Shown: positions 25,851 to 50,516 of the stretch, one piece after another
Layout: each line of letters begins with the position of its first letter
Numbering within the stretch: position 1 is the first letter of the stretch
From: Candidatus Magasanikiibacteriota bacterium
Lineage (GTDB): Bacteria; Patescibacteriota; Patescibacteriia; Magasanikbacterales; UBA922
Direction of reading: 5' to 3'
Assembly: GCA_014729395.1 (NCBI GenBank)
Contig: WJJZ01000010.1
Location: forward strand, 23,901-87,900
Length of the DNA: 64,000 bases
Position numbers and translations under genes: made by a program
The notes under the pieces: model-generated
Seen by the model: the letters and a program-made list of their open reading frames with translations, nothing else
Databases searched by the model: none
What the model was told of the DNA's origin: nothing

Positions 25851-26519
25851 ATGATCAAAAAATTTATTCAAAATAATAAATTTACATTGTTCATTTGGTT
25901 TAGCATGTTAATTTTAATGTTTGTAACAGGATATTATACTTATGAGGATAAAATTAACTTTTACAAAGCTCTTTCAAAAATAAATATAGAAGCTAAAAGT
26001 ATACAAAACTCTATACAAAATATAGAAATAGACAAAAATTCAGAAAATGCTCTTTTAGAAAATAATTTAGATGAAAGTAGCTCTTATCTTAAGCCATCCT
26101 CAACGAAAGTATACACTACTGTAGACAATTTTAAGATATCACAGGATGGTTCTGTTGCTACAAGTAATCCAAAAACAAACAATAATACAGAAAATAAGAC
26201 AAATCTTACATCCACTGAAAATTTGTCTATCACTCTCAAGGTCAATAATAAACAATATTTGGCTAAACTAAACAACAGCAGTACTGTATACGATCTAATG
26301 GAACACTTGCAAGAAGAAAGTGATTTTAAATTTAGTGGAGTTGAGTATGATTATTTAGGCTTTTTCGTTGAGTCTATAGCGAATATAAAAAATGATCCTT
26401 ACACCGGAAAATATTGGATATACTATGTAAACAATAAAAAAGCGACCATGGGCATATCCAATAGGCTATTAAAAAATAATGACGTAATCGAATGGAAATA
26501 TGAACAAGAGGAACTATAA
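25851..26519 (+). CDS. DUF4430-domain protein (beta-domain like that of transcobalamin/intrinsic factor), N-terminal TM anchor
   Basis: C-terminal 80 aa (LKVNNKQY..YWIYYVNNKKATMGIS..NNDVIEWKYE) fit the DUF4430 beta-grasp pattern; N-terminal TM helix. Confidence 0.5.
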   Translation: MIKKFIQNNKFTLFIWFSMLILMFVTGYYTYEDKINFYKALSKINIEAKSIQNSIQNIEIDKNSENALLENNLDESSSYLKPSSTKVYTTVDNFKISQDGSVATSNPKTNNNTENKTNLTSTENLSITLKVNNKQYLAKLNNSSTVYDLMEHLQEESDFKFSGVEYDYLGFFVESIANIKNDPYTGKYWIYYVNNKKATMGISNRLLKNNDVIEWKYEQEEL

Positions 26520-28986
26520 AAGTCCTGTCCTCGTTGCCCTTTTTACAATTATAATAATACTTTTTTCTGCAGAATCCGCATTTGCCAGTACCAATACCAC
26601 TTCAACAGATTCAAATTTGGAAACAAGTTCAAGTACCACTATTACCGATAACTCAATTGAGCTTGAAAGTTCATCAACCACCGAACAATTAAGTATAAAC
26701 ACATTGATGAATTCAAGTACTTCAACTGTTGACAGCACTAGCTCGAGTACCACAAATTCCTTTATAAGTTTGGGATCAAAATCTGATGAGATCATATCAT
26801 CAGAGGCCAGTGTCGAAGAAGCCACTGATTTATACACAAAACATATAAGTTTCAATCTGCGCTTAGGTGATGAATATGTGATAACTGAGGAGATTAATCT
26901 AAGTACGACCACCTACTCAGACCAAATCAATAATATTGAATACGACTTGGCTACTACCGGTACGGTTTTTTCCGCTCTTGTGCAAGCTGATAATTTATCT
27001 GAAAAATTCAGTATTAGTAATGCACAGTATAACGCAGAATTTGATAGTTTTTATATTGCCTGCCTGGAAATTGATGAAAATGGAGAAAACACTGAATACT
27101 GCGATAATTGGAATTATGTGGTTGACGATGAATACCCTTCAATCGGAATGGATAAATATGAACTGAATGGCGAAGAAAATGTTTATGTATATTTTTCTAC
27201 ACCATGGAAAATTACGACAAAGCATAATGAAGTCGAGGTTAATAGCACAACCACTGTTAAAACATGGCGCTATGCCTATAATGATCCCAATACCGAATGG
27301 GAAGCAGATCCTAATACGATGATTGACATTTCTCAGCCAAACGCAAGTTCTACCGGTTGGTGGGATGAGAATTTAACAGTATCTACCACTTATTCAAACG
27401 AAGATGGGTTTGCAGAACTGATTTTTTCAGAGCCGGGTATTTACAATATTAAAATCACTTCTTCCGACTGGACTAAATGGAGTCAGCCGGTACAAATAAA
27501 TGTTATTAATCAAACCAACCAAACTGTAACTTCCACCCTACAAACCGATTCCGCTACGGTTTCTACACAATCGACAAATTCTTATTCATCTACTTCCGAT
27601 AATGAATTGATTTCCAACACTGATATCGAAGAAGCAGCTAATCGAATATTATCATTTTTGGAATCAGAACAAGACCAATCGGGAAAAATCAAAGATGGCG
27701 GTACAAGTGACTGGAGTACGATTTCTTTCGGAGCAGCCGATATTGACTCGGATACCATAAAAAAAGAAGGTAAGTCATTGATTGATTATGTAAAAGACCG
27801 CGAATTGACCGAAACTAACGAGATTAATCTTTGTGCTGCTTATCCCAGACATATATTGGCTTTGTTGGCCGGCGGAATCGAGTCTGATGATCAACAAATA
27901 AAAAATTTAAGAGAAAAAATTGAAAATGACTGCTACGAATTGGAGAATGATAATAATTATGGGGAAATCGGAATCAATGACGATGTTTTTGCTCTTATTG
28001 CTTTAATTGCAAGTGGTTCTGACACCAAAGACAATCAAATATTAACTGATATATTAAACGAAATTAGCGATGACCAGACAGAAGATGGTGCATTTACTTG
28101 GGTAGGATTTCCTAGCGCTGATATTACCGGAGCTGTAATAAACACTCTTATCTACTCCAAAGAAAATGATATTGAAATTGATGAAAATTTGATTGATAAT
28201 GCACGCCAATACTTAAAAGAAACCCAGCTGGATGATGGCGGTTGGGGTATGGATGATAGTGATGTTCTCACAACATCATGGGTAATGATGGGAATAAACG
28301 CCCTTGGTGAAGATCAGCTTGATTGGCAGACCGATAGCGGAAAAAACCCTTGGTATGTACTGGTACAAAATTTGAATGATGAAGGATATTATGAATCCGA
28401 ATACTATACGGATGAAGTGGATTGGTTTGCAACCAAACATGCTGTTCCGGCTCTTTTGGGTAAAAGTTGGCCGATAGTATTTGAATCCGATAATGAGGAA
28501 AACCCAAACTCAAATACTACCCCATCTGAGACAAAGCCTGAAAACACCTCCGACGAAATAACCGACAACACTAGCACATCCACCACAGACAACATAACGA
28601 CCGATGATTCTGTTACCACTGAAAAAGATGAGCATACGAAATCCCCCACTTCCACACCGGCAGACGATGTAATTACAGATCCCAAAGAATATACTCCTCA
28701 AAACAACTTAAACATCAAAGGTTCAGGTGATTATAATTATGAACCTGCTATCGAAAAAAGTGATGACGCAAGTGATGAAAATGAAGTATTTGAAACGGTT
28801 GAACCGGATAAAATCGGACCCGAAGCAATAGATAAACCAACCACAACCAATAGTGATTTGGACCTGGATATAATAGGATTAATAAGAGAAAATCTACGAA
28901 AAATATTCTTTCTCATTACCGCCCTAACCGGAATTATGACAGTTCATGTAATCGGTAAATACATTCAACATAGAAAAAATAAATAA
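26500..28986 (+). CDS. Large surface protein: signal peptide, S/T-rich linker, alpha/alpha-toroid (prenyltransferase/terpene-cyclase-like) repeats, C-terminal TM anchor
   Basis: Signal peptide VLVALFTIIIILFSAESAFA; repeated Q..DG.W-type motifs (QDQSGKIKDGGTSDWS, QTEDGAFTW, QLDDGGWGMDD); T/D-rich stalk; C-terminal TM IFFLITALTGIMTVHVIG. Start overlaps the upstream gene by 20 nt. Confidence 0.55.
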   Translation: MNKRNYKSPVLVALFTIIIILFSAESAFASTNTTSTDSNLETSSSTTITDNSIELESSSTTEQLSINTLMNSSTSTVDSTSSSTTNSFISLGSKSDEIISSEASVEEATDLYTKHISFNLRLGDEYVITEEINLSTTTYSDQINNIEYDLATTGTVFSALVQADNLSEKFSISNAQYNAEFDSFYIACLEIDENGENTEYCDNWNYVVDDEYPSIGMDKYELNGEENVYVYFSTPWKITTKHNEVEVNSTTTVKTWRYAYNDPNTEWEADPNTMIDISQPNASSTGWWDENLTVSTTYSNEDGFAELIFSEPGIYNIKITSSDWTKWSQPVQINVINQTNQTVTSTLQTDSATVSTQSTNSYSSTSDNELISNTDIEEAANRILSFLESEQDQSGKIKDGGTSDWSTISFGAADIDSDTIKKEGKSLIDYVKDRELTETNEINLCAAYPRHILALLAGGIESDDQQIKNLREKIENDCYELENDNNYGEIGINDDVFALIALIASGSDTKDNQILTDILNEISDDQTEDGAFTWVGFPSADITGAVINTLIYSKENDIEIDENLIDNARQYLKETQLDDGGWGMDDSDVLTTSWVMMGINALGEDQLDWQTDSGKNPWYVLVQNLNDEGYYESEYYTDEVDWFATKHAVPALLGKSWPIVFESDNEENPNSNTTPSETKPENTSDEITDNTSTSTTDNITTDDSVTTEKDEHTKSPTSTPADDVITDPKEYTPQNNLNIKGSGDYNYEPAIEKSDDASDENEVFETVEPDKIGPEAIDKPTTTNSDLDLDIIGLIRENLRKIFFLITALTGIMTVHVIGKYIQHRKNK

Positions 28987-28989
28987 TGC

Positions 28990-29541
28990 TTGTCTTTAAT
29001 AAATATGTTCGATAAAACAAATATTTGGATTATGGTGGCACTGCTTATGTTACTTGGTTTCGCAACCAGATTACTGCCCCATCCACCAAATTTCACACCG
29101 ATAGCGGCAATAGCCATTTTTGGAGGTTTGTATTTACCAAAATACTTGTCTGTTGTAATTCCCATTGCGGTGATGCTGGTTGGAGATATAGTTATTGGAT
29201 TTTATAATCCCTACGTTATGATATCGGTCTATGTAGGCTTTATATTATGTGTTGTATTAGCCTTGATTATTCGTAAAAAGAAAAAAATTCACTACATACT
29301 TGGTACAACCGTCTTCGGATCCATATTATTTTTTTTACTTACGAATATGGCTGTATGGGCTTTTGGTACACTCTATCCACATAGTTTGGCAGGATTGATA
29401 GAGAGCTATACCATGGCCATTCCTTTTTTTAGGAATAGTTTGTTGGGAGACTTGTTTTATGTAGGTGTGCTGGTTGGTGGATTTGAAACGGTCAAATATT
29501 TTTTGTTAAATAATAAAAAAATAGAGCAAAAAATAATCTGA
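28990..29541 (+). CDS. Small polytopic membrane protein (5-6 TM), ECF S-component/BtuM-like candidate
   Basis: 183 aa with LLPHPPNFTPIAAIAIFGG followed by 4-5 further TM helices; last gene of the putative operon before the terminator. Confidence 0.4.
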   Translation: MSLINMFDKTNIWIMVALLMLLGFATRLLPHPPNFTPIAAIAIFGGLYLPKYLSVVIPIAVMLVGDIVIGFYNPYVMISVYVGFILCVVLALIIRKKKKIHYILGTTVFGSILFFLLTNMAVWAFGTLYPHSLAGLIESYTMAIPFFRNSLLGDLFYVGVLVGGFETVKYFLLNNKKIEQKII

Positions 29542-29566
29542 TCTAAAAAAAATAAGAATAAAAAAA

Positions 29567-29604
29567 CCCCGGACCAGTGAAATGGTGCGGGGTTTGTGGT
29601 TTTT
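29567..29604. terminator. Bidirectional intrinsic terminator (CCCCG..CGGGG flanked by A7 and U-run)
   Basis: aaaaaaaccccggaccagtgaaatggtgcggggtttgtggttttt between convergent genes. Confidence 0.6.
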
Positions 29605-29621
29605 GTATCTTTCACACCTCC

Positions 29622-29819
29622 TTACTTTGTACCAAGGAAACCAGGCCAACCGCCCTTTTTCTTCCAAACATCTGAATAGGTTTGGTGTGGACCAGACGGG
29701 AGACGGAGGTCCTGTTTGTAGCCTTTGATATATCCTCTAGAGGTTTTAAACCCCAAAGCCTGGGCAGCTTTGGAAGCTTCTTCCCAAGTTTCGTAGAAAC
29801 TAATTATTTTTTTACCCAA
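29622..29819 (-). pseudogene. Frameshift-separated fourth copy of the helicase C-terminal repeat
   Basis: Encodes GKKIISFYETWEEASKAAQALGFKT..GGWPGFLG, identical in pattern to repeats 1-3 of the upstream helicase. Separated by a +1 frameshift in a G3 (vs G2) run near 29835. Confidence 0.5.
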
Positions 29820-31392
29820 GAAACCAGGCCAACCGCCCTTTTTCTTTCCAGACCTCGGAGTAACTATTATTCGGGTCAGATGGAAGACGGAGGTCTTTTC
29901 TGTAGTGTTCTTGGTATTCTGTTTTAGTTTTAAACCCCAAAGCCTGGGCAGCTTTGGAAGCTTCTTCCCAGGTTTCGTAGAAACTAATTATCTTCTTACC
30001 CAAGAAACCAGGCCAACCGCCTTTTTCTTTCCAGACCTCGGAGTAACTCTTATTCGGGTAAGATGGAAGACGGAGGTCTTTTCTGTAGTGTTCTTTGTAT
30101 TCTGTTACAGTTTTAAACCCCAAAGCTTGTGCAGCTTTGGAGGCTTCTTCCCAGGTAGGGTAGAAATTCCGAGACAGCATAACATCAACATAGTCGAGAA
30201 TCCCGACAACCTCTTCCAAGTACTCATCATAGAACACCTTAAAGCCGGTTGAGACCTCTCTCACATCGGTGTCATAATCATCCCGAAGGCCGACAGAAAC
30301 CAGCTGTCCGATGAATTCCAAGCGCCGGTAGGTGCCGACAAAGTCCATGACAACCACTTTTTGCTTGTCTCTGGTCTTGCGCAGACCTCGACCGAGCTGC
30401 TGGTACCAGACTACGGCGCTTCTGGTTGAACGCAGGAAGACGATCAGGTCAACAGTGGGGATGTCAATTGCTTCATTGAACATATCCACCGTGAGTAGTG
30501 TCCGAATCTCTCCTCTTTGAAACGCTTGGAAGCGCTCTTTGAGAGTCTTTGTCTTGAGGCCCGAATGGTATGACACAGCCTCGGGAAAGTATTTGTTGAC
30601 TCTCCTAAGGTGGCTGATCGAACGACAGAAAATGACCGCCTGTTTGTCAGCAACCGACTGCTCGGCTTTGACAGTTTCGGCAATCGCTTCCAGTTTTTCA
30701 ACTAGAAAGAGATTTTTGTCAAGTTTTGTCTTTGAAATGGAGCGGTCCTCTTGCCTGACTCTCTCGATGAGATCTTGTATAACCTCTCTTGAGATGTTGT
30801 CGGTCAAGAGCCGGTACTCCACCTCAGCCAGCCACTCGTTGTCAGCGAGTGCCTCTTTCAAGCCGTAGGAGTATACCTCGTCTCCAAAGATATCCCTGAT
30901 ATCAAGACCATCTCCCCTGAAAGGAGTAGCGGTCATACCAAGCATGAACCGGGGTGTGAAGTAGTCGATGATTTCCTTGTAGGTCTCTGCATGAGAATGA
31001 TGAGCCTCGTCTACGATGACAAGAGAAAACTCATCCTCTTCCAGCTCCCAAACAAGGCTTTCCTGCATGGTCTGAAAAGTACTAAGGAGCACCGTGGCAT
31101 CCTTATCTTCTTTGACCACGCCATTGACAATCGAGATGCCGGGCTTGTCCTCAAGACTGAAGAGAGCCTCTTCAAACTCCTGTTTGGCCTGATACAGCGG
31201 GTCGGTCATATGAAGGATAAAGAGAACTTTACCTCCATAATTTTCCAACCAATAGCGAATGATGTTGCCGGCGAGCACTGTCTTGCCCAAGCCGGAGGCC
31301 ATGGAAATTAGAACAGTTTTGAATCCACTGCTCACGGCCTCAAGGATAGCCGACTTAGCTTCTTCCTGATAAGGTCTGAGTGTTTTCATCAC
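29812..31392 (-). CDS. SF2 (DEAH/ResIII-type) helicase with C-terminal tandem 60-aa repeats
   Basis: Motif I MASGLGKT, motif II VIVDEAHH, motif III TATP, motif VI QQLGRGLR; followed by three repeats of ETWEEASKAAQALGFKT..EY..YRKDLRLPS.PN.SYSEVWKEKGGWPGFLG. Confidence 0.8.
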   Translation of the reverse strand: MMKTLRPYQEEAKSAILEAVSSGFKTVLISMASGLGKTVLAGNIIRYWLENYGGKVLFILHMTDPLYQAKQEFEEALFSLEDKPGISIVNGVVKEDKDATVLLSTFQTMQESLVWELEEDEFSLVIVDEAHHSHAETYKEIIDYFTPRFMLGMTATPFRGDGLDIRDIFGDEVYSYGLKEALADNEWLAEVEYRLLTDNISREVIQDLIERVRQEDRSISKTKLDKNLFLVEKLEAIAETVKAEQSVADKQAVIFCRSISHLRRVNKYFPEAVSYHSGLKTKTLKERFQAFQRGEIRTLLTVDMFNEAIDIPTVDLIVFLRSTRSAVVWYQQLGRGLRKTRDKQKVVVMDFVGTYRRLEFIGQLVSVGLRDDYDTDVREVSTGFKVFYDEYLEEVVGILDYVDVMLSRNFYPTWEEASKAAQALGFKTVTEYKEHYRKDLRLPSYPNKSYSEVWKEKGGWPGFLGKKIISFYETWEEASKAAQALGFKTKTEYQEHYRKDLRLPSDPNNSYSEVWKEKGRLAWFLG

Positions 31393-31535
31393 TGACTCTC
31401 CTATGTGAAAGTTTTGTTTTTGAATGTACGATTAACGGCTAAGTTTAGTATAAAATTGAAATTTTGTCAAGTTAAATAAAATATCCCTATTTTTAGGGAT
31501 ATTTTTGAATAATTTTTGTCTAATTATAGCCTAAT

Positions 31536-49054: not shown

Positions 49055-49975
49055 TTATTTTTTATAAATATAATCTTTAATATCTGCCAGAGGGTATTCA
49101 TTATGAAAAGCAATTTTTTCAGGTAAATCATCCAATGGAAAATAATCAAAATCATCCATTTCCACATTTTTTATAAAATTATGTGATTTAATTTTAGCAA
49201 AATAAAATGATACAACATCTGCGGCTTTGGGATGTTTGGCCCTATCTGAATATACTTGAAACAATACACCCATTTCACTTTCTACCCCAAGCTCTTCTCT
49301 AATCTCTCTTTTTAGGCAATCTTCAATTGTTTCGCCAACATAAATATGACCACCGGGAAAATCCCAAAAACCCACATATGGAGGTTGAATTCTCCTTGCC
49401 AATAAAATTTCCTTTTTTTCGTTTAAAATAATGGCGTTAGTCGCAAATCGAGGATATTCGTTTTGAACTATATATGTATAATCTTTATTAAAATATTCAC
49501 TGTATATTCTTCTGTTGCTGGGAATTAATTGCCCTTCTTTTTTCTTTTTCAAATAAGTAAGTGCGATCAAGCCATGATTAAACGCCAGAGGGTGCTCTGC
49601 CAGTTTTTCCAATGTGAGCCATTTAAAATCACTCACTTCGGGATTGATTTTTAACTCTCCTTTTTTTATTTTAACTTCAAAAGCCACCTGAACTACAAAA
49701 AATCTTGGATCCGGAGGAGGATTCATAGACGGATCAGCAAATATATCTATTAAATTTTTAATTTCTACATCAAGTCCGGTTTCTTCTTTTACTTCACGAA
49801 GTACTGTATGTTCAATATTATTGTCACCAACCTCAACTCTCCCCCCAACCAAAGTCCAAAAACCCTTAAATGGAGACACATCTCTTTTAACCAATAAAAT
49901 CTCATCCTTTTCATTGAGAATGACAGCATCTATGCATGGAACCGGATGATCTGATTGTTCTGTATATTTATACAT
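49055..49975 (-). CDS. Tandem-Nudix hydrolase (two Nudix boxes)
   Basis: GGRVEVGDNNIEHTVLREVKEETGL and GGHIYVGETIEDCLKREIREELGV. Start taken at MYKYTEQ. Confidence 0.7.
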   Translation of the reverse strand: MYKYTEQSDHPVPCIDAVILNEKDEILLVKRDVSPFKGFWTLVGGRVEVGDNNIEHTVLREVKEETGLDVEIKNLIDIFADPSMNPPPDPRFFVVQVAFEVKIKKGELKINPEVSDFKWLTLEKLAEHPLAFNHGLIALTYLKKKKEGQLIPSNRRIYSEYFNKDYTYIVQNEYPRFATNAIILNEKKEILLARRIQPPYVGFWDFPGGHIYVGETIEDCLKREIREELGVESEMGVLFQVYSDRAKHPKAADVVSFYFAKIKSHNFIKNVEMDDFDYFPLDDLPEKIAFHNEYPLADIKDYIYKK

Positions 49976-49976
49976 A

Positions 49977-50516
49977 TTATTTACTAAGAAAATAATGCCT
50001 GGTGATAGACCATGCGGCCATGGTCTGTCCGCACCAGATATCATTGTTTATTACCATTCTGTCCACCTCTTCCGGGTACCTGCAAATCACTTCGATCTCC
50101 TCCTCATCATCAGATTCTATTTCTGTTTGATTTTCCACTTTTGCCAAAAAAATATGTGACTTATCTTTGAATAGACCGTTCGAAGCTTGAAATTCACCAA
50201 CTTTTATAAAATCAGAAGCTATATAACCGGTTTCTTCTTGTAACTCCGATGCTGCGGTTTTGACAGGACTGGAACCCTGTCTTATTCCCCCGCCCGGAAA
50301 TTCAATACTGTTTTTGCTTTCCAGATATCTATATTGCATTACTAGCACCAAACGCCCATCAGATAAGATCGGCACAACCATGGACATTCCGTTTGTTAAA
50401 CCGTAATAGTAATCACCATATTTGCCGTTCGCATATACAAGCCGATCATGCATATATTTCCACCAAGGATTCTCATCTATTATTTCTTCGCTGATTTTTT
50501 TTATCTTATTTAGCAT
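49977..50516 (-). CDS. Nudix hydrolase (ADP-ribose pyrophosphatase-like)
   Basis: Nudix box GGGIRQGSSPVKTAASELQEETGY. Confidence 0.7.
   Translation of the reverse strand: MLNKIKKISEEIIDENPWWKYMHDRLVYANGKYGDYYYGLTNGMSMVVPILSDGRLVLVMQYRYLESKNSIEFPGGGIRQGSSPVKTAASELQEETGYIASDFIKVGEFQASNGLFKDKSHIFLAKVENQTEIESDDEEEIEVICRYPEEVDRMVINNDIWCGQTMAAWSITRHYFLSK

Follow-up and report, generated by a model that had tools for sequence, protein, structure and literature searches.

The closest described relatives of the gene studied here are SF2 helicases of Patescibacteria (CPR), in which ResIII and Helicase_C domains are followed by a tandem array of INT_rpt repeats. More than 1,000 homologues have this architecture, nearly all of them from Patescibacteria; those with 35–50% identity to our protein come from Magasanikbacteria, Falkowbacteria, Paceibacteria, and Saccharibacteria, and share its domain order (e.g. 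P0002–P0120, 'DEAD/DEAH box helicase family protein'). The repeat, Pfam PF14882 INT_rpt ('Integrase repeat unit', formerly PHINT_rpt), occurs in 5,565 clusters at 50% identity, and NCBI gives relatives the title 'integrase repeat-containing protein'. Among the best 57 INT_rpt proteins, the partner domain was Integrase_2 in 19, Phage_integrase in 4, ResIII/Helicase_C in 3, Mrr_cat in 2, and PDDEXK_4 in 1, and many INT_rpt proteins are arrays of this domain only. According to literature and structure searches, the family is without assigned function, without a solved structure, and essentially without literature: no functional study of INT_rpt was found in the literature, and a modelling paper merely lists the domain with a low-quality score.

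Resemblances to other systems concern the array, the motor, and the frameshift described below. The predicted fold of the INT_rpt array matches the non-motor regions of giant-virus SF2 helicases (Klosneuvirus KNV1, A0A1V0SLK7; Bodo saltans virus, A0A2H4UVX6; Terrestrivirus, A0A3G4ZSX7) with a Foldseek probability of 1.00 and E values of 3e-4 to 5e-3; sequence identity is only 17–22%, and the likeness rests on predicted fold. This match suggests that the helicase-plus-repeat combination also occurs in mobile and viral genomes. The motor is most like ResIII-type DNA translocases, namely the type I restriction R subunits, type IV methyl-directed restriction helicases, RadD, and XPB. In the poly-G/C contingency loci of Neisseria, Haemophilus, and Campylobacter, and in prfB-type +1 recoding, the length of a G run sets the C-terminus that is made, as it does here. 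Known contingency loci are driven by tracts of roughly 7 or more, whereas the run in our gene has 3 bases, with neither a conserved shift site nor clear stimulatory elements.

The gene lies in a 64,000-nucleotide stretch of a Candidatus Magasanikiibacteriota contig (the window). It stands at the low end of its family in array length, with 3 units (2 as translated) against a CPR-family mode of 4–5, and it differs from the family in carrying a frameshift and in lying within a GC island that is missing from the nearest relative.

Results

As it stands, the helicase ORF occupies positions 29812–31392 on the minus strand and encodes 526 aa from the GTG at 31392 (the NCBI call is 525 aa from the ATG at 31389), with the C-terminal end ...WKEKGRLAWFLG* in the ORF list. 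The identical database protein (P0001) is titled 'MAG: DEAD/DEAH box helicase [Candidatus Magasanikbacteria bacterium]' at NCBI. An earlier note, made from the letters of this stretch, had called the product an SF2 helicase, and Pfam bore this out: the core, residues 1–362 (30307–31392, minus strand), contains ResIII at residues 4–159 (122.9 bits against a cut-off of 22.5, 1.6e-35) and Helicase_C at residues 233–338 (51.6 bits against a cut-off of 23.5, 1.3e-13). Motifs I (SGLGKT), II (VDEAHH), III (MTATP), and VI (QQLGRGLR) are all intact, and the columns Q9, G36, K37, D128, E129, H131, T154, T156, R159, Q331, Q332, G334, R335, and G336 are invariant in a 41-sequence alignment. The pLDDT of the core in an AF2 model is mostly 85–97. 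In the repaired protein (see below), the helicase core is followed by a helical linker of ~45 aa and an INT_rpt array that extends up to the C-terminus. The family, from uncultured tiny bacteria, is large and had already been catalogued; this helicase is an ordinary member of it.

In other databases, the motor matched NCBIfam EcoAI (3e-38) and RadD (1e-25), PADLOC mREase_IV (2e-47), and PHROG 16 'DNA helicase' (4e-68). Three more specific identities were considered and rejected. The match to a type I restriction R subunit (EcoAI/FtnUII) reached 131.7 bits against a cut-off of 550, and the protein has no nuclease domain and the gene no adjoining hsdM/hsdS; that to the DNA repair helicase RadD (YejH) reached 89.8 bits against a cut-off of 720. 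For a known anti-phage defence helicase, the PADLOC matches were confined to the motor and covered parts of 950–1100-aa models, and no partner genes flank the locus.

At the 3′ end of the gene, TRF detected a minus-strand tandem array at 29743–30156 (period 183, 94% matches), and a repeat search returned three 184-nt copies (29632–29815, 29816–29999, and 29999–30182) with spacings of 184 and 183. These results and the ORFs confirm the tandem array, encoding a module of ~60 aa, that the earlier note had described. It had counted 3–4 units; a repeat HMM found only residues 409–466, 471–527, and 532–588 in the repaired helicase, giving three. Unit 1 (FYPTWEEASKAAQALGFKTVTEYKEHYRKDLRLPSYPNKSYSEVWKEKGGWPGFLGKKIIS; 183 nt, 29983–30165, minus strand) scored 85.2 bits against the family-built repeat HMM. 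Unit 2 (29799–29982, minus strand), which at 184 nt is one base too long, scored 86.1 bits when repaired and 72.0 bits unrepaired. Unit 3 (29625–29798, stop at 29622–29624, minus strand) scored 82.6 bits, at about the 95th percentile among 551 family repeats, and contains no stops; it is not decayed. The description of the units as near-identical holds for units 1 and 2 (170/183 positions, 92.9%, with the extra base removed) but not for unit 3, which is 72–75% identical to the other two and differs from unit 2 at ~45 of 183 positions. All of unit 3, preceded by the inter-unit linker, lies within a 65-aa ORF with a TTG start (29622–29819, minus strand), an out-of-frame continuation of the helicase. 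The intact, out-of-frame repeat that had been reported in this ORF is real, but it is the third unit and not a fourth. Unit 2 equals unit 3 at 8 sites, and unit 1 equals unit 3 at 2. The idea that unit 2 is a unit-1/unit-3 mosaic was downgraded, as this pattern also fits simple divergence in which unit 1 changed more.

Against PF14882 INT_rpt, the repaired protein scored 171.2 bits (5e-51; cut-off 26.5) and one repeat unit alone 59.2 bits, and all three units share the family signature Y..Y..D.RLP..P...Y...W.GW..FLG. The 60-aa module, which had been regarded as unplaceable, is thus a catalogued, functionally uncharacterised domain; by the earlier note's own yardstick, a match of the repeat to a known domain, the original finding is largely deflated. 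Each module is predicted to form a small five-helix unit with high confidence (pLDDT 94). A search of solved structures (PDB) yielded no relative of this predicted fold, and searches of PHROGs and PADLOC gave no match for the repeats. In joining a tandem array to a DNA enzyme, the helicase resembles the INT_rpt family; its partner is an SF2 helicase, whereas the family is named after integrases (Integrase_2 / Phage_integrase). Since INT_rpt arrays are found elsewhere with integrases, helicases, and PD-(D/E)XK nucleases, the array may act as a DNA- or partner-targeting accessory.

The array is interrupted at 29836–29838, where the sequence, the unit alignment, and the repair place a plus-strand CCC, that is, GGG in the sense of the gene on the minus strand. 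Unit 2 reads AAAAAGGGCGG in the sense direction, whereas unit 1 reads AAAAAGGCGG, with a plus-strand CC at 30020–30021. Unit 3 has CCC at 29653–29655, and one fewer A upstream compensates. The one-base difference (CCC versus CC) that had been pointed out at this place was thus confirmed by unit comparison. So was its consequence, a single-base frameshift within the array: deleting one C fuses the 526-aa and 65-aa ORFs into a protein of 589 aa and about 67 kDa, which ends 2 residues past the last repeat. The peptide in the repaired frame across the unit 2 site is GGWPGFLGKKIISFYETWEE (longer, ...WKEKGGWPGFLGKKIISFYETWEE...), and the unit-2-specific flanks of the site are GACCCGAATAATAGTTACTCC / GACCCGAATAATAGTTACTCCGAGGTCTGGAAAGAAAAAG upstream and TTGGGTAAAAAAATAATTAG / CGGTTGGCCTGGTTTCTTGGGTAAAAAAATAATTAG downstream. 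In the unrepaired frame, a premature TAA stop (29812–29814, minus strand) is met 8 codons past the extra G, where unit 2 meets unit 3 at GGT-AAA (Gly-Lys), and the truncated product ends in W-FLG just before it. An exact 24-nt stretch with the GGG in it (AAAAAGGGCGGTTGGCCTGGTTTC) is common to units 2 and 3, while the junction AAAGAAAAAGGGCGG is absent from unit 1 and from unit 3.

The base-level quality of the window looks high: 90% of it is coding, with 64 long ORFs, and 159 long homopolymers (A/T of at least 7, G/C of at least 6) lie inside intact ORFs. Among ORF pairs of the window that overlap or adjoin, a search for other split genes found none, each pair holding complete domains, and the helicase frameshift is the sole apparent one in 64 kb. 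No comparable split at this position was present among the listed homologues, the arrays of which are in a single frame.

The gene coincides with a GC island at 29600–31400 (47.5% GC against 34.6 ± 2.5% elsewhere; z = 5.2), and its GC3 is 55%, compared with 31–34% in neighboring genes. It is flanked by pyrG and a gene for a DUF6580 membrane protein. The nearest relative has the syntenic block Era-L9-pyrG-[slot]-DUF6580-DUF4430, with the slot empty of the helicase. The single-gene GC island and the empty pyrG-DUF6580 slot indicate that the gene was acquired horizontally, and by these sequence features the gene is dispensable or foreign. Direct repeats at the borders of the GC island, including target-site duplications, were looked for and not found. 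An intrinsic terminator hairpin at 29557–29595 (arms 29564–29576 and 29583–29595, 92% complementary, with T-runs on both strands; −21.3 kcal/mol, z = −2.3) is common to the convergent helicase and DUF6580 genes; it lies after the stop of unit 3, not after the premature stop. A consensus scan detected a promoter-like site, TTGACA-17-TAAACT (31442–31470, minus strand), just 5′ of the helicase start. Since this site follows a terminator-like hairpin that ends pyrG (31478–31505, inverted repeat 100% complementary), the helicase is probably a monocistronic unit. This copy is a clean case of a single gene inserted horizontally into a housekeeping block that is otherwise conserved, in a CPR genome of reduced size.

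The 118 homologues listed share, for the most part, this layout of core, linker, and array and have mostly 3–8 repeats (1–2 in five proteins), and in most of them the last repeat lies within a few residues of the C-terminus. Three pairs are 100% identical save for one unit of 59 or 61 aa: P0002 (893 aa) and P0123 (954 aa), P0139 (709 aa) and P0140 (650 aa), and P0086 (697 aa) and P0138 (638 aa). Together with the range of 3–8 units, these pairs support the earlier suspicion that repeat number is unstable. Arrays of this family also coincide with assembly breaks: contig L002 contains an N-gap and a frame change within the array, and two cluster members end at contig ends in the array. No assembly of the same species was found, the next-best match of the helicase being less than 50% identical and the best match of pyrG 77%. 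A scan of metagenome contigs with the repaired protein recovered no close relatives, only two distant stand-alone repeat proteins. A scan of GTDB genomes with the family alignment returned, among the matches listed (at least 600), mostly distant repeat-less SF2 helicases and nothing close; L001 and L002 were the sole informative ones among them.

Discussion

Since unit 3 is undecayed and the terminator follows unit 3, the lesion is either recent or artefactual. We favor, with a probability of about one half, a horizontally acquired Patescibacteria-type SF2 helicase with three INT_rpt units, in which the extra G is a genuine, very recent, unprogrammed mutation. With one base inserted in unit 2 (GG to GGG), the frame would shift, and the ribosome would read 8 altered codons (GRLAWFLG) before halting at the TAA that the Gly-Lys junction of the units conceals. 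The helicase made would keep its motor and one repeat intact and have a second repeat slightly altered, with unit 3 untranslated. The insertion could have arisen by simple duplication of a G, or unit 3, which has the same 24-nt stretch, could have supplied it through gene conversion or a short template switch; either way, it would be one further event in an array evolving by unit gain, loss, and exchange. On this reading, the extra base is real rather than a consensus error, and the truncated helicase would still work.

The chief rival, a serious possibility that we nonetheless do not expect to hold, is an assembly or consensus artefact: the true gene would be an intact 589-aa three-repeat helicase, or one with more units that have been collapsed, and the extra G would come from reads of paralogous units misplaced in assembly or polishing. 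An undecayed unit 3 (82.6 bits) and a terminator beyond it are exactly what an artefact would leave, too. The 24-nt stretch shared by units 2 and 3 could have allowed mis-mapped unit-3 reads to 'correct' GG to GGG, whereas the ~45 differences between these units make mis-mapping of ordinary reads unlikely. Family arrays do break other assemblies, as the N-gap in L002 and the contig-end partials show, and such errors reach public data, for instance in the frameshift-ridden long-read contig L083. In contrast, our shift is the only apparent one in the 64 kb, and the 159 much longer homopolymers within intact ORFs indicate that generic homopolymer error was not the cause. As the junction AAAGAAAAAGGGCGG occurs in neither other unit, a k-mer assembler could not have made it by joining units, and a de Bruijn assembler must have met it in reads; this argument fails if a long-read consensus was polished.

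An improbable extension of the preferred reading is that the extra G is both real and polymorphic in the population, the INT_rpt arrays of CPR helicases being diversity hot spots that tune the number of targeting modules. If so, unit gain and loss, gene conversion between units, and frame breaks at 'hidden' Gly-Lys stops would jointly set module number, forming a modular, recombination-driven analogue of a contingency locus on an uncharacterised domain that lacks a relative of solved structure.

Replicative slippage proper, in which the G-run (with the adjacent A5) would toggle two- and three-repeat helicases across a population, we judge very improbable. The lesion is an indel in a homopolymer, and the W-FLG-then-stop end makes both forms plausible family members, but G3 and A5 are far shorter than the tracts of known contingency loci, equivalent short runs in units 1 and 3 bring no shift, and no listed homologue is split comparably at the site. 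The earlier proposal of a slippage-prone site that varies module number finds no support when this G3 beside A5 is compared with the 159 much longer runs in intact genes of the same window. Of the three options in the earlier note, a truncating mutation, apparently recent, and a sequencing or assembly error both stay plausible for the extra G, which does not look like a genetic switch.

Recoding that yields short and full-length helicase is scarcely credible, whether by a programmed +1 ribosomal frameshift (tRNA-Lys moving from AAA to AAG over a slow GGG) or by transcriptional slippage. The required shift is indeed +1 at AAA-GGG-C, AAA can re-pair with AAG, and GGG is the rarest Gly codon here (10%). 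The helicase nevertheless uses GGG 5 times, and the A site holds neither a stop nor a truly starved codon; the only SD-like sequence, GAGG ~14 nt upstream, is found just as well in unit 1, where no shift is required. Nor is the site conserved: the arrays of the listed homologues (mostly 3–8 units) are wholly in one frame. For transcriptional slippage, runs of A5 and G3 are too short. Equally hard to credit are two genes by design, a two-repeat helicase and a separately translated 65-aa single-repeat protein: stand-alone INT_rpt proteins exist (the L081 and L082 ORFs and many domain-only arrays), but those seen have at least 3 repeats and start at an ATG of their own, whereas the 65-aa ORF starts at a TTG within the upstream coding sequence, lacks a Shine-Dalgarno-like sequence ahead of it, and opens with 9 residues of the normal inter-unit linker.

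The frameshift itself matters very little, being a lone lesion in one MAG and in a family whose array length varies anyway; annotation should simply mark the helicase as probably truncated or possibly misassembled. Two side results have modest value, namely the single-gene insertion described above and INT_rpt, which is widespread (CPR helicases, integrases, nucleases, giant-virus helicases). Since its fold is confidently predicted and has no PDB relative, it is a reasonable target for structural work, as well as for DNA-binding work.

Elsewhere in the family, stand-alone three-repeat INT_rpt ORFs of 200 and 213 aa lie beside a UvrD-exonuclease fusion in L081 and L082, and helicase remnants and split copies are present in other lineages, in keeping with a dispensable or foreign gene.

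A three-unit array interrupted by one extra base

The SF2 helicase is encoded on the minus strand by a 526-aa ORF (29812–31392), and a 65-aa minus-strand ORF lies downstream in a different frame (29622–29819). Tandem Repeats Finder detected a single array at 29743–30156 (period 183, 94% matches), and a repeat search resolved three copies (29632–29815, 29816–29999, and 29999–30182) spaced by 184 and 183 nt. In gene sense, units 1, 2, and 3 start at 30165, 29982, and 29798, respectively, and each is translated as FY(P/E)TWEEASKAAQALGFKT...LRLPS.P...YS.VWK.KGGWPGFLG. Unit 2 has one base more than either of the other two, reading AAAGAAAAAGGGCGG where unit 1 reads AAAGAAAAAGGCGG; on the plus strand, this corresponds to CCC (29836–29838) versus CC (30020–30021). 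Beyond the extra G, the frame runs through GRLAWFLG to a TAA at 29812–29814. With one C deleted from the CCC run, the protein extends to 589 aa and contains all three units in full, its C-terminus lying two residues past the last. The repeat HMM found exactly three domains in this repaired protein (residues 409–466, 471–527, and 532–588), indicating that there are three units rather than four and that the out-of-frame "fourth" unit of the earlier note is the third; apart from this count, the note's observation is real. After removal of the extra base, units 1 and 2 were 92.9% identical at the DNA level, and unit 3 was 72–75% identical to either.

The translated product retains the whole motor, unit 1, and a unit 2 whose last eight residues are changed from GGWPGFLG to GRLAWFLG; the W and FLG are kept by chance, and the altered unit still scored 72 bits. 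Since intact relatives work with just three units, and a few of the listed proteins have one or two, the truncated helicase is probably still active. The frameshifted tail (29812–29840) finishes in W...FLG as an ordinary unit does, and its TAA is concealed in GGT-AAA, the Gly-Lys junction between units; an identical hidden stop occurs at the boundary between units 1 and 2. Late in a unit, any insertion of +1 nt would therefore trim the array cleanly at the unit end, although these hidden stops probably arose by coincidence from AT-rich codon usage.

Domain identity and variation among relatives

The repeat, which had seemed impossible to place from sequence, is a catalogued domain, Pfam PF14882 (INT_rpt, "Integrase repeat unit"), matched with 171 bits (cut-off 26.5; E = 5e-51). 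N-terminal to the repeats, the motor consists of ResIII and Helicase_C with every SF2 motif intact. Among NCBIfam and PADLOC models, this motor comes closest to RadD and to the restriction translocases of types I and IV, with scores far under the family cut-offs; the window's helicase has neither a nuclease domain nor partner genes. A search of 5.8 billion proteins with the helicase returned 1,397 matches, the best 120 of which all share the ResIII, Helicase_C, and INT_rpt layout (for P0100, by our own repeat HMM alone), showing that the architecture is common. Nearly all of these are from Patescibacteria, and several bear the name "integrase repeat-containing protein." The window's own protein, P0001 (on a 295,853-bp contig of a Candidatus Magasanikbacteria MAG), has the same frameshifted tail.

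Among these 120 homologues, five (42 proteins) or four (38) units were most frequent, followed by three (14), six (12), seven (8), and eight (2), a few carrying just one or two; in most of them, no more than a few residues follow the last repeat. The suspected instability of repeat number was borne out at the family level by three pairs inside 90%-identity clusters that were 100% identical except for exactly one unit (P0002/P0123, 893/954 aa, 61-aa unit; P0139/P0140, 709/650 aa, 59-aa unit; P0086/P0138, 697/638 aa, 59-aa unit), bearing in mind that assemblers can collapse identical units. Broken copies, too, turn up repeatedly among relatives. One helicase copy was split into 290- and 378-aa parts on one contig. 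Fifteen contigs (several samples) carry a 155-aa N-terminal fragment of a related helicase; this fragment is a fixed pseudogene remnant and shows that some CPR lineages can dispense with the family. At L084 4001–4468 (also L085–L087), it ends just past motif II.

Origin of the gene

The helicase gene forms the window's highest-GC stretch (29600–31400; 47.5% versus 34.6 ± 2.5%, z = 5.2), with a GC3 of 55% compared with 31–34% in the flanking genes, and the edges of this sharp single-gene island coincide with those of the gene. The nearest relative (17 contigs, pyrG 77% identical) has the same order of Era, L9, pyrG, DUF6580, and two DUF4430 genes, but its helicase slot (L088 7626–8041) holds an 81-aa ORF alone; a second relative has other genes downstream of pyrG. 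The GC island and this gap in the conserved block together argue strongly for horizontal insertion of a single gene. A search of the island's flanks revealed neither direct repeats nor an integrase. The two adjoining DUF4430 genes (25851–28986) are kept as a pair in L088 (187 and 968 aa); the second protein in the window (828 aa) is Ser/Thr-rich, with a signal-peptide-like segment, a weak squalene-hopene-cyclase-type repeat match, and a C-terminal membrane anchor.

Nature of the frameshift

Unit 3 is undecayed: among 551 family repeats, its score of 82.6 bits ranks near the 95th percentile. An intrinsic terminator hairpin (29564–29595, −21.3 kcal/mol) lies past the stop of unit 3, not past the premature one. 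The lesion is thus either very recent or not real. The terminator region (29557–29595), which escaped a simple terminator scan, is bidirectional, with T-runs on both strands, and is common to the helicase and the convergent DUF6580 gene (28990–29541, plus strand).

We put the probability that the extra G arose by a real mutation at about 0.5. Apart from this site, the window is clean (90% coding, with no other ORF-free gap resembling a broken gene), its suspicious ORF pairs each hold complete domains, and units 2 and 3 have diverged too far for reads to be easily mis-mapped between them. In addition, the junction sequence of unit 2 is absent from the other units, so a k-mer assembler could have taken it only from reads. 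An assembly or consensus artefact, against which the same observations count, is nevertheless a serious possibility at odds short of even, as repeat arrays are a classic site of consensus errors and an identical 24-nt stretch, GGG included, occurs in both unit 2 and unit 3. The INT_rpt arrays of this helicase family are assembly trouble spots: a SPAdes-assembled MAG (L002, about 1320–1420) has an N run and a frame change exactly within the array. This MAG is labelled Gammaproteobacteria and is probably a mis-binned CPR genome. On L083, a long contig full of frameshifts, the breaks are clearly errors. Scans and look-ups yielded no second assembly and no relative closer than a helicase < 50% identical and a pyrG 77% identical.

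Unit 3 can be reached only by a +1 shift at AAA-GGG-C, and of the glycine codons GGG is the least used (10%), as recoding might favour; however, the helicase itself uses GGG five times, and unit comparison revealed no stop or stimulator particular to the unit 2 site. The slippage-prone switch, one of the options raised earlier, fares no better, since the run is a G3 adjoining A5, tracts at known contingency loci are far longer, 159 longer homopolymers sit within intact ORFs of the same 64 kb, and no homologue among the best 120 of 1,397 is split at this point. Phase variation and recoding, taken together, are thus very improbable; the frameshift is most likely a lesion or error of one base, without any programmed role.

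Elsewhere in the window, overlapping minus-strand ORFs of 329 and 179 aa (49055–50516) jointly encode three NUDIX domains; their 68-nt overlap may be a mere effect of choosing the most upstream start codon.

Distribution of INT_rpt

The array profile matched 5,565 clusters at 50% identity. In the best 57, the partners were Integrase_2 (19), Phage_integrase (4), ResIII/Helicase_C (3), Mrr_cat (2), and PDDEXK_4 (1), the remainder being mostly stand-alone arrays. Stand-alone three-INT_rpt proteins of 200 and 213 aa (L081 4034–4636 and L082 3986–4627) lie next to, and divergent from, an apparent UvrD-exonuclease fusion, a UvrD-like helicase of ~820 aa in which a DnaQ-like exonuclease part seems, judged by eye, to be present; this is a further link of INT_rpt with DNA-repair enzymes. 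No functional literature on INT_rpt was found; its occurrence beside DNA enzymes suggests that it is an accessory module that targets DNA or a partner. In BFVD, the giant-virus SF2 helicases A0A1V0SLK7, A0A2H4UVX6, and A0A3G4ZSX7 (Klosneuvirus, Bodo saltans virus, and Terrestrivirus) contain the same predicted repeat fold, a hint that nucleocytoplasmic large DNA viruses and CPR bacteria may have exchanged the helicase-plus-repeat architecture.
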